From contig JAZDMV010000002.1 of NCBI GenBank assembly GCA_043800535.1, positions 11,378-75,377 of the forward strand: DNA of 64,000 nucleotides. Reading direction: 5' to 3'. Below, one piece after another: positions 31,069-46,161 of the stretch (the stretch's first letter is position 1; each line of letters opens with the position of its first letter). Position numbers and translations under genes: made by a program. Origin of the DNA: a bacterium. Lineage in GTDB: Bacteria; Patescibacteriota; Minisyncoccia; Portnoybacterales; GWB1-42-6. The notes under the pieces are model-generated. The model saw nothing but the letters and a program-made list of their open reading frames with translations. It made no database searches and was not told the DNA's origin.

Positions 31069-32172
31069 TTAAGATTCAGTCAAAATTTTATCAATTCTCG
31101 CCTTAATTTTATGCCCCTGACAATGTTTCAATATCCCAAAATATGACTGCAAGGTTTGACCAAAAGACGCTTCAGAGATCAGACCCGTCCGCAAACCTTG
31201 CCGCCTATTTATCATCTTCTTCAGTATTCTCTTTTTAGTTTTTGTCCGCAAAACCCGATAATACGGCAAAACTACATAGCCAAGAAAGTCAATCCCCTGA
31301 CGATACTTTCTGATTATTATTTTATCAGGATGTAAAGTTAATTTCAATCTTTCTTCAAGAAAATCGCTGATCAGCGGAATCAATCCGTTTAAATATTCTT
31401 CGTTTTCGCCCAAAATCACAAAATCATCGCAATAACGCAAATAGTATTTTTCTCTTAATCCGTGCTTAACAAATTGGTCAAGCTCGTTCAAATAGATATT
31501 GGCAAATAGCTGGCTGGTGACATTGCCAAGAGGCAAACCCTTGTTAGGCGATTTTTCAAAGCTTTTGATTATTGCTTCAATCAGCCATAAAATATTTTTC
31601 TCTTTGACTTTCTGCCTGACTAATTCCAACAAAATTTCATGATCAACTGAATCAAAAAACTTTCTAATATCGCATTTTAAAGCAAAAAGATCTTTTGTGT
31701 TATTTTGGCTTAATTTTCCGGCGAATTTTTCCAGTCGGCTGACTGCCCGATGTGTGCCCTTGCCCAAACGGCAAGAATATGAATCAAAGATAAAACTTTT
31801 ATCAAAAATTGGATACAAAACTCTAAATACGGCGTGGTGCAAAACTCTGTCGCGTACGCAAGCTTTGTGAATCCGCCTTGGCTTTGGGTCACATATTGAA
31901 AACGCGGTATAATGGGAGTGACAATAAGCTTTCGCTTTTAATTCATGATGGAGCTTGAATAAATTATCCTCTAAATTAAATTCAAATTCCTGAACGTCCG
32001 GTTTATTGCCTTTGCCTCGCTTAAATTCCCGCCAGGCCAAAAACAAATTTTCCAGCGAAATTATTTGCTCAAAAACTTTCCATCCTTCGGATGGTCGCCC
32101 GAAGGGCAATAACTTTTCACTTTTAACTTTAAACTCATGACTTATAACGCCCCCCCCCAGCGGGTTCAACAA
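31069..32172 (-). CDS. diversity-generating retroelement reverse transcriptase
   Basis: RT motifs: SICDPKPRRIHKACVRDRVLHHAV (motifs 1-2), LPLGNVTSQLFANIYLNELD (an SQ-type motif 4 that I recall as typical of DGR RTs), RYCDDFVILG (YxDD). Cognate TR/VR lie adjacent. The start may instead be a TTG about 60 nt downstream; a G9 tract lies at codons 6-8. Confidence 0.85.
   Translation of the reverse strand: MLNPLGGGVISHEFKVKSEKLLPFGRPSEGWKVFEQIISLENLFLAWREFKRGKGNKPDVQEFEFNLEDNLFKLHHELKAKAYCHSHYTAFSICDPKPRRIHKACVRDRVLHHAVFRVLYPIFDKSFIFDSYSCRLGKGTHRAVSRLEKFAGKLSQNNTKDLFALKCDIRKFFDSVDHEILLELVRQKVKEKNILWLIEAIIKSFEKSPNKGLPLGNVTSQLFANIYLNELDQFVKHGLREKYYLRYCDDFVILGENEEYLNGLIPLISDFLEERLKLTLHPDKIIIRKYRQGIDFLGYVVLPYYRVLRTKTKKRILKKMINRRQGLRTGLISEASFGQTLQSYFGILKHCQGHKIKARIDKILTES
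32150..32158. repeat. C9/G9 homopolymer at the RT 5' end / avd-RT divergent promoter
   Basis: acgc ccccccccc agcgg. The only run of this length I noticed in the window. Confidence 0.8.
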
Positions 32173-32188
32173 GTTTGAAGTCCCTGTT

Positions 32189-32506
32189 TTGCATAGAATT
32201 TTTGAGCTGTATAAATTATTTCACAAATGCCTGATATTATTCCCAAAACAAGAAAAATATACGCTGGGACAAAAAATAGAAAATACGATTTTGGAAACAC
32301 TTGAGCTAACCCTATCGGCAAGCTATTCTAATATCTACAAAAAGGAAATTCTAACAAAAGCAAATAATAAAGTTGACCTTTTGAAATATCTAATCCGGCT
32401 TTCCCACGAGACAGATTCTGTCAAAATCAAAAGTTGTCTGACGCTGGAAGAAATAATCATTGAAATCGGAAAAATGATTGGCGGCTGGCGGCGTTCTCTC
32501 AAATAA
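32189..32506 (+). CDS. avd: Avd-like accessory protein (four-helix-bundle family)
   Basis: 105 aa. LYKLFHKCLILFPKQEKYTLGQKIE and C-terminal EIGKMIGGWRRSLK resemble the FPK.EKY ... EIGKML.GLIKSLK pattern of PF05635/Avd proteins. Divergent from the RT, which is unusual. Confidence 0.65.
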   Translation: MHRIFELYKLFHKCLILFPKQEKYTLGQKIENTILETLELTLSASYSNIYKKEILTKANNKVDLLKYLIRLSHETDSVKIKSCLTLEEIIIEIGKMIGGWRRSLK

Positions 32507-32523
32507 AATTGGCTTTAACTTTG

Positions 32524-32554
32524 AAAAGAAGCCCCGTGTCTTACGGGGCTTCTT
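32524..32554. terminator. perfect hairpin gaagccccgtgtcttacggggcttc between avd and TR
   Basis: 9-bp stem. Terminator for avd. Confidence 0.5.
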
Positions 32555-32571
32555 TGACTATACTTAGCACT

Positions 32572-32691
32572 ACCGACAAACAAAAGACCGGAAGAATAGT
32601 TGTCGTTCGCGTTGCCCAGATTGCCCCTGTTGTCAAAGTTGAGCCTGTCATCATTGGCCTTGAAGTTAAGCGAATAGTCCGACGACTGTCA
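32572..32691 (-). repeat. DGR template repeat (TR), sense strand = minus
   Basis: 120 bp nearly identical to 32943-33062. Sense strand is Asn-codon rich: QSSDYSLNFKANDDRLNFDNRGNLGNANDNYSSGLLFVGS. Every mismatch to VR is at a TR adenine. Confidence 0.85.
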
Positions 32692-32886
32692 ATAATTTGT
32701 TCTTTCCCGCCCCAAGCCACCAGAAGAGCATAAACTGCGCTTCTTGTATTTTATTCGGTCCCGGCTGGACCATAGAAAAGGACAAGGAGTGCTATAAATA
32801 TATTCGGCGACCTTGATTTGTTAAAAACCAAGATACATTAGCCTACGAATTTATTATACCAAAAAAATAAAAAGGGCGTAACGTGA

Positions 32887-32916
32887 TACTCATCGTTACG
32901 CCCTTGCAAAGATTCA
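32887..32916. other. 10-bp-stem hairpin gggcgtaacg-N10-cgttacgccc about 25 bp downstream of VR
   Basis: Position matches the DGR hairpin/cruciform reported to promote mutagenic homing. Also serves as the target-gene terminator. Confidence 0.5.
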
Positions 32917-32935
32917 AAGATCAAGGGACAAAGAA

Positions 32936-33898
32936 TCAACTCCCGACAAACAAAAGACCGGAAGAATAGCTGCCGCTCGCGCCGCCCAGATTGCCCCTGC
33001 TGCCAAAGTAGAGCCCGCCATCATCGGCCACGAAGCAAAGCGAATAGTCCGACGACTGCCAACTTAAAGCCGATAAATCCAATCCTGGCGTGTACCAATC
33101 TCTGGCAAGGACATCTGGATACATCGCCAGTGCGATGGCCGTGTCAAAGCCGCCAGCCATCAGTAAAGATTCCGGAAGATGGAATAATTGTTCCCGGCTT
33201 GCCAGAACAGAAAACCCTTGCAAGGGGTTAGGGAAATAAATCGCGACTACATAGCTCTTTATCATATTAAAAACGAGTTTCTCATGCCGCGTTCCTTCCA
33301 CGATACCCACCTTGCCCTCCAGCTCGTTTTCCCGGTAACTATAAAACTTCCTGCCGGGAAATTGTTTCTCGAAAGAAAATTTAACGGCCGGCAGAAAAAT
33401 CCGTTCCAGGGCCCGACCATAGTCCTCAATGCTTTCCAGCTTCGGCAGGATAATCGGCAGATAAACGCCATTGAGTAAATTGACAATCTTTTTGTTGTCT
33501 TTAATTTGGCCAATCAGCTCGTTGGCTCTGCCTTCGAATTCAGCAACTGACATAAATAGGCCGGGCTTGAAAGCTTCCTGAAAATAGACAAGCCGATTTG
33601 CATAACCATCAATGGTATTCAAGCTCGGCTGGACAAGATAAAATTTCTTGTCCGGATCGCAAACCGCGTTTTTCAAGCCCTTTGCCGGAATTACGCGGCC
33701 GTTTTTGTCCGCGAGCTTCGAAACTCTTTCAATGAGTTTAACTTCAAGCTCGTCCCTCAAAAGTGCATCAAGCTTCTCTTCGTCGCCACCGCAAACCTTG
33801 CTTAAAATAGCGACAATCTGGCCCCCGGTTCGTCCTCTCAAAATTTCTAAAGAGCTTCCCATATCACACCTCCTGGTTTTGAGCTTTTTATTGCCCAA
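32936..33898 (-). CDS. DGR target protein (320 aa) with C-terminal variable region
   Basis: C-terminus ...WQSSDYSLCFVADDGGLYFGSRGNLGGASGSYSSGLLFVGS overlaps VR. No signal peptide seen. Fold unassigned. Confidence 0.7.
   Translation of the reverse strand: MGNKKLKTRRCDMGSSLEILRGRTGGQIVAILSKVCGGDEEKLDALLRDELEVKLIERVSKLADKNGRVIPAKGLKNAVCDPDKKFYLVQPSLNTIDGYANRLVYFQEAFKPGLFMSVAEFEGRANELIGQIKDNKKIVNLLNGVYLPIILPKLESIEDYGRALERIFLPAVKFSFEKQFPGRKFYSYRENELEGKVGIVEGTRHEKLVFNMIKSYVVAIYFPNPLQGFSVLASREQLFHLPESLLMAGGFDTAIALAMYPDVLARDWYTPGLDLSALSWQSSDYSLCFVADDGGLYFGSRGNLGGASGSYSSGLLFVGS
32943..33062 (-). repeat. DGR variable repeat (VR) encoding the last 40 codons of the target gene
   Basis: 16 mismatches to TR counted by eye, all at TR sense-strand A positions (A->G about 13, A->T about 3). 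The 3'-terminal about 27 nt are identical (IMH-like). Confidence 0.85.
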
Positions 33899-44706: not shown

Positions 44707-46161
44707 CTAATTATGAGAACGCTCGTAGGCCAGCGCCGCCTCAAAAATTATTGGTTCGCCCGCATGCGGGCCGATAATCTGCAGGCCAACCGGCAAATTC
44801 CCGATCTTGCCGCAATTCATTGAAAGGGCCGGAACGCCTGCCAGATTTATTGATACCGTATAAATATCGGACAGATACATTTTTACCGGGTCGGCAATTT
44901 TTTCTCCAAATTTAAACGCGGGAGTGGGAGAAACCGGCGTCATAATAACATCCACATCTTTAAACGCGCTTTTAAAATCATTTTTTATCAATGTCCGCAC
45001 TTTCTGCGCTGCCAGATAATAAGCGTCATAATACCCGGCTGATAAGCTGTAAGTCCCGAGCATTATCCGACGCCTGACTTCATCGCCAAAACCGCGCTGC
45101 CGGCTTTTCAAATAAACACCCATCAGGTCGCTGGCAACTCCATCAACTTCGTTCATTGTTGAATATCCGTATTTTATGCCGTCAAACCGCGCCAGGTTCG
45201 CCGAAACCTCCGAAGCCATAATTATATAATAACATGCGAGAGCCAAATCCGAATGCGGCAAGCTTACTTCTTTTACTTTTGCGCCCATTTCCTGGAACCT
45301 GAAAATTGCCTGTTTGACCAGCCCTTCAACTTCTTCGTCAATACCTTGGGCAAAATATTCTTTGGGCATGCCGATCCTTAAGTCCTGAATCTTGAAACCT
45401 GCCCCTCGACTTCGCTCGGGGTAAAAATTAAAATCAACGCTTGTTGAGTCCAAGCTGTCTTTTCCTTTTATCGCGTCAAAAACCATCCTACAGTCTTCAA
45501 CCGTCTTGCCCAACGGCCCTATCTGGTCAAGCGACGAAGCCATCGCCATCAGGCCAAAACGAGAAACTGCGCCATAGGTCGGCTTGAGCCCAGCCACCCC
45601 GCAGAACGAAGCCGGATGACGGATCGAGCCGCCAGTGTCAGACCCAAGAGCATAAATTGTTTCTTCGGCCGCCACCGCCGCGGCCGAGCCGCCCGAAGAC
45701 CCCCCCGGGACGCGCGTCAAGTCGCAGGGATTTTTTGTCGGCCCGAAAGCGGAATTTTCGGTTGAAGAACCCATGGCAAACTCATCCATGTTTGTTTTTC
45801 CGACAAAAACCGCCCCTACTTCTTTCAGTTTTTTTATTACCGTCGCGTCATACGGCGCCACAAAATTCTCCAGAATCTTTGAAGCTGAAGTGCATTTAAG
45901 GCCTTTTGCCAACATGTTGTCTTTCACAGCCACGGGGATACCGGCCAGGTCATTCAAATCCTTGCCTTTACTTCTTGCTTCATCAATTTCTTTGGCCCGC
46001 GCCAGCGCCCCCTCTTCATCCAATGAGAGAAAAGCGTGGATATCCGCGTCTTTTTTCCTTATCTGCGCAAAAACCGCCTCGGTCAGCTCAGCGGAGGAAA
46101 ATTCTTTTTTCTTGAGACCTTCTGCGGCCTGCTTAATTGTCAGCTCGTTCAAGCTCAACAC
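44707..46161 (-). CDS. gatA: Glu-tRNA(Gln)/Asp-tRNA(Asn) amidotransferase subunit A
   Basis: Amidase signature GGSSGGSAAAVAA and catalytic region. Confidence 0.9.
   Translation of the reverse strand: MLSLNELTIKQAAEGLKKKEFSSAELTEAVFAQIRKKDADIHAFLSLDEEGALARAKEIDEARSKGKDLNDLAGIPVAVKDNMLAKGLKCTSASKILENFVAPYDATVIKKLKEVGAVFVGKTNMDEFAMGSSTENSAFGPTKNPCDLTRVPGGSSGGSAAAVAAEETIYALGSDTGGSIRHPASFCGVAGLKPTYGAVSRFGLMAMASSLDQIGPLGKTVEDCRMVFDAIKGKDSLDSTSVDFNFYPERSRGAGFKIQDLRIGMPKEYFAQGIDEEVEGLVKQAIFRFQEMGAKVKEVSLPHSDLALACYYIIMASEVSANLARFDGIKYGYSTMNEVDGVASDLMGVYLKSRQRGFGDEVRRRIMLGTYSLSAGYYDAYYLAAQKVRTLIKNDFKSAFKDVDVIMTPVSPTPAFKFGEKIADPVKMYLSDIYTVSINLAGVPALSMNCGKIGNLPVGLQIIGPHAGEPIIFEAALAYERSHN

Follow-up and report, generated by a model that had tools for sequence, protein, structure and literature searches.

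Canonical diversity-generating retroelements (DGRs), such as the avd-TR-brt element of Bordetella phage BPP-1 and the clade 2 elements of Candidate Phyla Radiation (CPR) bacteria, combine a reverse transcriptase (RT) with an (I/L)GxxxSQ motif, the protein Avd, and a template repeat (TR) plus a variable repeat (VR) that differ specifically at TR adenines, the VR lying at the C-terminus of the target. CPR bacteria hold a large share of the known cellular DGRs and, to our knowledge, the natural regulation of DGR activity is largely unknown. In the poly-G/C contingency loci of Campylobacter jejuni, Neisseria, Helicobacter pylori and Bordetella pertussis, a G/C run of about 7-13 nt in the 5' part of an open reading frame (ORF) shifts the frame by changes of +/-1 nt, and its length differs between otherwise identical genomes; G9-G10 is the typical range of such tracts in C. 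jejuni. Here we analyse a complete DGR, with RT, divergent avd, TR/VR pair and target gene, in a 64,000-nucleotide stretch of contig JAZDMV010000002.1 (assembly GCA_043800535.1, Patescibacteriota; hereafter the window). Its RT coding region contains a run of nine G which, judging from its position and from related loci, is probably a slipped-strand contingency tract gating RT translation.

The element in the window shares the hallmarks of canonical DGRs. The RT ORF carries an RVT_1 domain (E=6.9e-24), an LGNVTSQ motif of the (I/L)GxxxSQ type is present in its translation, and its homologues are DGR-type RTs of the CPR. Avd matches Pfam bAvd (PF22296, E=6.7e-18). The two 124-nt repeats differ at 17 positions, 16 of the 17 mismatches falling at TR adenines, and 16 of the 30 TR adenines are changed. 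Unlike in canonical DGRs, avd is divergent, with a head-to-head overlap at the RT start, and it is an N-terminal extension of the RT, made up of a short peptide (N-peptide) and poly-Gly, that carries the homopolymer; we know of no such extension in the Bordetella bRT. The features of the locus are as follows.

32150..32158, minus strand: G9 homopolymer (C9 on the plus strand; plus-strand letters CCCCCCCCC), candidate slipped-strand tract in the RT coding region between conserved start and catalytic core
32135..32194, minus strand: predicted, conserved RT start (ATG 32194-32192) and N-peptide frame, which with G9 reads MQNRDFKLVEPAGGGRYKS and stops at TGA 32137-32135
31069..32172, minus strand: RT body frame, a 367-aa mechanical ORF from TTG 32172, with RVT_1 and LGNVTSQ
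32189..32506, plus strand: avd, 105 aa, with a TTG start (32189-32191), Pfam bAvd PF22296
32569..32692, minus strand: TR, 124 nt, with adenine-specific mismatches to the VR
32939..33062, minus strand: VR, 124 nt, repeat of the TR at the 3' end of the target gene
32936..33898, minus strand: DGR target gene, 320 aa, identified as an ORF and without a Pfam domain
32525..32555, no strand assigned: GC-rich hairpin of 13-14 bp separating the stop codon of avd from the TR end, with folding energies of -23.8 and -26.1 kcal/mol (z = -5.7 and -6.3)

The G9 tract and the start of the reverse transcriptase gene

An earlier note on this DNA had reported a C9/G9 run at the junction of avd and the RT gene and had noticed no other G/C run of such length in the 64 kb. 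Both observations hold: the run lies at 32150-32158, with the nine C on the plus strand, and is the sole G/C homopolymer of at least 8 nt in the window, the runners-up being two C7 runs at 45700 and 54268. The expected number of runs of at least 9 nt per 64 kb is 0.21 if bases are independent and identically distributed, about 0.5 under a first-order Markov model and about 0.15 when the decay of run lengths is extrapolated. By composition alone the G9 run is unremarkable, and its significance derives from its context and from the comparison with relatives. Only 15% of the window's glycine codons are GGG, and third codon positions nearby vary strongly, so the purity of the run points to a constraint at the nucleotide level, beyond a requirement for glycine.

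In the mechanical ORF that starts with TTG 32172 (31069..32172), the tract occupies the last base of codon 5 and codons 6-8 (LGGG), as the earlier note had it. That note had taken the RT to start at this TTG or at a downstream one (TTG 32112), the latter leaving the tract in a short divergent promoter region shared with avd. Alignment with other DGR RTs places the start elsewhere, at ATG 32194, upstream of both TTG codons. In this arrangement avd (plus strand, TTG 32189-32191) and the RT gene (minus strand, ATG 32194-32192) overlap head to head by 6 nt (TTGCAT, 32189-32194), so that the promoter of each must sit inside the coding sequence of the other, and the promoter scan lent no support to a shared promoter region between them. 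The tract precedes the avd start codon by 31 nt, and the open frame of avd contains no start codon upstream of 32189.

The peptide encoded from ATG 32194 on the minus strand, MQNRDFKLVEPAGGG, matches the N-termini of homologous RTs from CPR/Patescibacteria metagenomes (60-74% identity). These begin with a conserved peptide of the pattern M[HNQRYD][QN][RGW][NH][IFV][KN] followed by glycines, as in MHQRHFKLVEPVGGGV (P0005) and, in another homologue, MHQWHIEPVGGGVIRHKFKVKNEK. In relatives without a tract the RT likewise opens with this ATG and peptide, directly in frame (L056 MNQRNIIRHNFKDIISL; L025, L046 and L058 too), which argues for the ATG as the genuine RT start and places the tract within the coding sequence. 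Conservation of the N-peptide has a period of 3, with the second codon position the most conserved. It was set aside as proof of coding, since avd runs antisense in the same phase and NGG forms codon 4; relatives that lack the tract and are in frame provide stronger proof.

Given this start, the length of the tract decides which protein is predicted. With nine G, the ATG frame reads on to RYKS and a stop, and the RT frame reads ..GGGVISHEFKVKSEK.. onward. In silico, one G fewer (G8) or two more (G11) produces a single ORF of 374/375 aa (MQNRDFKLVEPAGGGVISHEFKVKSEK..), and G9 and G10 yield peptides of 19 and 17 aa from ATG 32194. The G9 allele assembled in the window is accordingly predicted to be OFF, one G too long.

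Conservation of the tract and its frame states in related loci

The comparison drew on 61 species-level genome loci and 80 metagenome loci encoding relatives (141 in total), which were grouped into clusters at >=90% flank identity. A pure run of G7-G13 is present at the orthologous site in 110 of these 141 CPR loci, representing 87 clusters. The run sits 8-125 nt upstream from the conserved core (F..IISLENLF) and is preceded by N-peptides of 8-17 codons. Counted as distinct states, the tract lengths are G7 (4), G8 (6), G9 (30), G10 (30), G11 (10), G12 (2) and G13 (1). Over 383 kb of related loci, G/C runs of at least 8 nt number 84 at this site and 4 elsewhere. The tract is missing in more distant relatives, including those of DPANN archaea, Giovannonibacteria and Buchananbacteria. 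The comparison of lengths across related genomes that the earlier note had proposed thus returned a range of G7-G13 and all three frame states. The same note had regarded conservation of the tract as glycine codons in orthologous RTs as evidence against switching. In the formal sense GGG(G) is indeed conserved, but as an uninterrupted homopolymer of varying length, which does not contradict a switch.

Of 89 distinct allele states, 19 have the ATG peptide and the RT in one frame; a gain of 1 nt would be required in 28 and a loss of 1 nt in 45 (the unclassifiable L042 being counted here). In 36 of 65 OFF clusters the stretch of RT frame from the last stop to the core holds no ATG, GTG or TTG. 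Called proteins give a related picture: the N-peptide is in frame in 21 of the first 60 called proteins of the homologue search, and the remainder start in such ways as MGGGV.., MAWREF.. or MENLF..; these heterogeneous N-termini are evidently artificial. The fraction of ON alleles is about 21-35%, close to or a little under the one third that lengths random with respect to frame would give. An enrichment of OFF alleles beyond chance was considered, as DNA gives 21% ON (p = 0.009 against one third), and was dropped because called proteins give 35%.

The RT ORF is otherwise intact in 52 of 62 complete OFF representatives; additional lesions occur in the other 10 of 62, compared with 0 of 13 ON lineages, a non-significant difference (Fisher p = 0.19). 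Six of the lesions are in-frame nonsense codons at conserved W/Q/R/L, three are frameshifts or deletions and one is a truncation; they occur in the lineages L001, L010 (and L101-L103), L088, L116, L123 and L125, and also in L045, L050, L051 and L041. Some OFF alleles seem to be decaying into pseudogenes. An alternative genetic code was rejected as the source of the in-frame stops, since the TGA and TAG codons stand opposite W, Q, R and L in alignments and are therefore true nonsense mutations.

The sequence that follows the tract is also patterned. Across the 87 clusters the first RT-frame codon after it (window 32141-32149) is NTT, followed by A[AG]N, and the NTT codon has a third-position entropy of 0.57, against 1.91 at the first and 0.94 at the second position. 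In 86% of clusters NTT-A[AG]N puts a TAA or TAG in the RT-1 frame no further than 4 codons past the tract. This early stop could reflect selection for fast termination in the OFF frame, an AT-rich element on the avd strand, or equally the effect of the conserved residues behind the tract.

Three unusual arrangements were seen at the site. L038 and L039, two relatives at 63% identity, have (GT)9 or (GT)8 in place of poly-G, about 31 nt (L038) and about 14 nt (L039) upstream of the RT core. Both retain a remnant of the N-peptide (..DRNIK.., ..EDWNIK..) without its ATG, and L039 has a new ATG right after the repeat. The (GT)n may represent another simple-sequence repeat that came to occupy this position independently, in which case the switch perhaps arose more than once. 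In L120 an interrupted tract, GGGGGTGGGG, lies about 40 nt upstream of the RT core, and the N-peptide frame has a GTG start and reads MSKRNIKSVGGGA*, out of the RT frame; this may be a locked allele. L042 has tracts of G13 and G11, 98 nt apart with a run of N's between them, each of which then encodes ..GGGGSFYGH..; either the region around the tract may have been duplicated in tandem, or the assembly may be at fault.

Tract length differences between closely related strains

Tract length also differs within strains. In four strain-level groups of contigs the 400-nt flanks are 100% identical (99.6% upstream in one group) and the tract lengths differ:

L006/L070, G9 (OFF), against L072/L073, G8 (ON): the only other differences, over 3,359 shared columns, lie in a block of TR-adenine positions, i.e. 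the VR
L090/L093, G9, against L098, G8 (ON): 28 differences in a block at the VR position and 1 SNP (single-nucleotide polymorphism) over 3,483 columns
L074, G7, of the same strain group as L090/L093/L098: 400-nt flanks identical, about 1.4 kb identical, then divergent
L048/L111/L112, G11, against L113, G12 (ON): one 52-bp deletion, in L111
L001/L062, G9, against L063, G10: 1 SNP

Summed over the four groups, there are 5 tract changes against 2 SNPs and one deletion outside the VRs in about 12 kb, which indicates that the tract changes far faster than ordinary sequence. In eight other multi-member clusters tract length is constant across contigs, so the length calls are reproducible. The VRs are diversifying in the same lineages, at TR adenines among L070, L072 and L073 and in the block at the VR position among L090, L093 and L098, in contigs that are otherwise identical.

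Two of the contigs have further peculiarities. The 52-bp deletion of L111, the only non-tract difference of its cluster, lies immediately beyond the RT gene, some 1 kb downstream from the tract. The stretch of about 1.4 kb that L074 shares with L090/L093/L098 covers the target, TR, avd and the 5' end of the RT gene; identity then falls to 77% and 65% within the RT, and alignment is poor beyond it. L074 has either a recombination breakpoint inside the RT gene or a chimeric assembly.

A predicted contingency switch and its alternatives

The locus and its relatives together display a homopolymer of at least 7 nt within an ORF, frame-dependent ON/OFF states in silico and length polymorphism between relatives, as in contingency loci. 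We propose that slipped-strand mispairing during replication adds or deletes G's in the tract, and that lengths in the right register alone (G8 or G11 in the window) would link the start codon to the RT frame, the two other registers ending after a peptide of 17-19 aa. A population would then be a shifting mix of RT-ON and RT-OFF cells, and mutagenic retrohoming into the VR of the target would be switched on and off stochastically. Such changes would presumably be reversible and frequent within a population, OFF alleles would yield little or no active RT, and the tract may be kept by selection for switching. The idea of the earlier note that the RT is phase-variable through slippage is supported by the conserved tract, the frame states and the length differences in relatives, with two amendments: the start is moved to the ATG, and G9 becomes an OFF allele. 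On the wider scale we lean, with less confidence, towards the view that a large CPR/Patescibacteria clade selectively keeps the poly-G tract, such that hypermutation is phase-variable, with most cells RT-OFF and rare ON cells diversifying the target. CPR DGRs (clade 2) are significantly below average in activity in metagenomes (Roux et al. 2021, PMC8144416), as a frequently OFF RT would produce.

Several points weigh against a switch. In-frame TTG codons (32172, 32169) lie just upstream of the tract, and a truncated RT could start there at any tract length. Conservation of the N-peptide is partly nucleotide-like, codon 4 being NGG (R/G/W) and codons 1-3 being antisense, in phase, to the avd start. 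L090 and L093 both carry G9 (OFF) and yet differ in their VRs, which implies either that switching is fast relative to sampling or that OFF is leaky; low-level transcriptional or ribosomal slippage on G9-G13 may make it so. The excess of OFF alleles is not robust (21% or 35% ON), and the lineages are not independent. Length polymorphism is known from relatives, and no close one was found for the window's own strain: exact-protein look-ups with Avd, the 367-aa RT and the RT annotated at NCBI found no other contigs, and scans of metagenomes and genomes found no relative above 74% RT identity. Finally, all tract lengths come from consensus assemblies, in which homopolymers may be miscalled.

The last point leads to the view that the length differences are sequencing or assembly errors and that the true alleles are all in frame. 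Homopolymers are error-prone, and the consensus assemblies come from many projects. We nevertheless hold this to be highly improbable: a tract occurs at the same site in 87 independent clusters, with 84 runs of at least 8 nt there against 4 elsewhere, the same length recurs across independent samples in 8 clusters, and runs of 7-13 nt should be below the k-mer length of typical assemblers. Moreover, out-of-frame alleles dominate, and random +/-1 error around an in-frame truth would not resemble two G9 and two G8 assemblies of one strain. For the window alone, the RT could instead be expressed from TTG 32172/32169 or from TTG 32112, with the tract as plain Gly-Gly-Gly and no gating in this strain. 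The mechanical ORF from 32172 is open and complete (367 aa), the NCBI annotation (MFH0852034.1) starts at the second TTG, 32169, and an AGGGA motif, read by eye, lies 8 nt upstream of the first TTG. We regard this as unlikely, however: the TTG TTG pair is an out-of-frame reading of the conserved codons CTT GTT GAA (KLVEP) and looks incidental, the majority of OFF relatives (36/65) have no such start, the conserved ATG and peptide would go unused in this strain alone, and gene callers give the RT family heterogeneous, evidently artificial N-termini.

Programmed recoding makes the out-of-frame arrangement the normal one: slippage of RNA polymerase, or +1/-1 ribosomal frameshifting at tRNA-Gly, would set a low dose of RT, and changes in DNA length would be secondary. 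It would accommodate the roughly 65-79% of alleles that are out of frame, the 36 of 65 OFF clusters without a canonical RT-frame start, the otherwise intact RT ORF of 52 of 62 complete OFF representatives, the VR differences between the OFF-consensus contigs L090 and L093, and the RT-1-frame stop that 86% of clusters have no more than 4 codons behind the tract, though not adjacent to the last GGG codon. Net +1 frameshifting at a low level is supported by G-strings in thymidine kinase mutants of herpes simplex virus (HSV), and transcriptional slippage by runs of at least 9 nt; in bacteria, G runs are poor substrates for RNA polymerase slippage compared with A/T runs. Recoding sites, however, hold one fixed frame relation, whereas all three are found here, with 19 of 89 states in frame and frames that differ within strains; some lineages would require a shift of +1, others one of -1. 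In most loci the codons that follow the tract are not slip-prone (CGT TAA, TCT TAG, GAT TAG), and no conserved RNA structure that might act as a stimulator was found by the tract, the hairpins in the window lying about 40-70 nt downstream (32080-32110) in a lineage-specific insertion. Additional RT lesions, found in 10 of 62 OFF but in 0 of 13 ON lineages, are a further point against recoding. A prfB-like +1 site (CTT TAA after a Shine-Dalgarno-like G run) fits a few loci (L018, L021, L028) and was rejected as the general mechanism, most loci having CGT TAA, TCT TAG or GAT TAG. Recoding as the main function of the tract is thus quite unlikely in our judgement; the presence of all three registers, of in-frame alleles and of registers that differ within strains favours switching at the DNA level over a fixed recoding.

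It is likewise doubtful, and to a slightly greater degree, that the homopolymer is kept for some other role, as a promoter or 5' untranslated region element of avd, as a nucleic-acid structure or as a flexible poly-Gly linker, with changes of frame being tolerated. Given the head-to-head overlap, the tract does lie in a region that must hold the avd promoter or leader; the third-position conservation in NTT-A[AG]N corresponds on the avd strand to an AT-rich hexamer adjoining poly-C; and GGG(G) is always read as glycine in ON alleles. A promoter spacer, though, needs a fixed geometry, and the distances from the tract to the ATG and avd (N-peptides of 8-17 codons) and to the core (8-125 nt) both vary. 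The promoter scan of the avd strand was empty, with total hits no higher than in shuffles, and there was no Rfam match. A glycine linker has no need of GGG codons only (15% usage), and both RT and avd are retained in relatives that have no tract.

Other features of the locus

The head-to-head overlap has a regular structure: avd codon 2 (His) has the RT ATG as its antisense, and opposite the avd start (TTG or GTG) stands RT codon 2 or 3. The relatives inspected share this overlap, for example as ATGCAC / GTGCAT.

Between the tract and the core, the RT of the window contains a 30-nt in-frame insertion (LPFGRPSEGW; 32080-32110, minus strand), which forms two mini-hairpins, GCCC-UUC-GGGC and CCAUCC-GAA-GGAUGG. 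Larger in-frame insertions occur at the same spot in L002, L011, L045, L115, P0030, P0032, P0034 and P0038, some of them translating as '..SAGLLRFARN..'. The insertions look like small palindromic mobile elements, so that the site may be an insertion hot spot.

The hairpin at 32525-32555 folds strongly on both strands, and the minus strand then reads UUUUCAAAG. It looks like a bidirectional terminator, and it may be the end of both the avd mRNA and a short, separate TR RNA, in which case the RT would have its own transcript. The best sigma-70-like match of the region (TTAACA-16-TATATT, 10/12) lies at 32797-32824 on the minus strand, between the stop of the target gene and the TR, and is a candidate promoter for TR RNA, in a region whose total hits are no more than those of shuffles. 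Indeed, the scan of 31900-32950 for promoters and terminators gave hits that were not above shuffles, none of them on the avd strand, and nothing in Rfam matched the locus meaningfully.

Implications and comparison with known systems

If the proposed switch is real, diversification would be on in a subpopulation only, limiting the cost of mutagenic retrohoming and keeping its benefit; a contingency locus would control a mutation generator, placing a stochastic switch on top of a generator of diversity. This would also explain both the low activity of clade 2 DGRs and the chaotic annotation of RT starts. In this clade the annotated N-termini of most RT genes are wrong or truncated, and pipelines that score whether an RT is intact or a DGR active should handle the tract explicitly. 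The idea is testable on existing metagenomic reads and time series, and the tract is a possible tunable switch for engineered DGRs.

The earlier note was not aware of such a tract as a recognised DGR feature, and we found no published report in the full-text literature of a homopolymer, slippage, frameshift or phase-variable tract in a DGR, although a mention in subscription literature is possible; the DGR surveys of Wu et al. 2018 (PMC5758913) and Roux et al. 2021 (PMC8144416) do not mention one.

The nearest parallels lie in other systems. Homopolymer recoding sites, such as A9 in Thermus dnaX, T9 in Shigella mxiE, those of insertion sequence elements, the G-string of HSV thymidine kinase and the +1 site of prfB, likewise sit at the junction of two frames that jointly specify a single conserved protein, with an early stop in the unshifted frame. 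They differ from the present case in that the frame relation here is not fixed, in-frame, +1 and -1 alleles coexisting even within strains, and in that no conserved stimulator was found. In phasevarions (Mod methyltransferases) and switchable mutators (mutL/mutS), as proposed here, a repeat gates an enzyme whose activity alters many phenotypes or the supply of mutations, and thereby exerts second-order control of variability; their effect is genome-wide methylation or mutation, whereas here it would be the site-directed diversification of the VR of a single target. The poly-G/C contingency loci are the closest in form, with the same range of lengths and a mode of G9-G10. There, the gated genes encode surface antigens, glycosyltransferases or restriction-modification enzymes and the tracts are specific to strains or species, whereas the gene predicted to be gated here encodes the RT of a targeted hypermutation system, and the tract is kept at the orthologous site across a large CPR/Patescibacteria clade of DGRs. 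What is new is thus the nature of the putatively gated gene, a DGR RT, together with the conservation of its tract at one orthologous site across a wide CPR clade.

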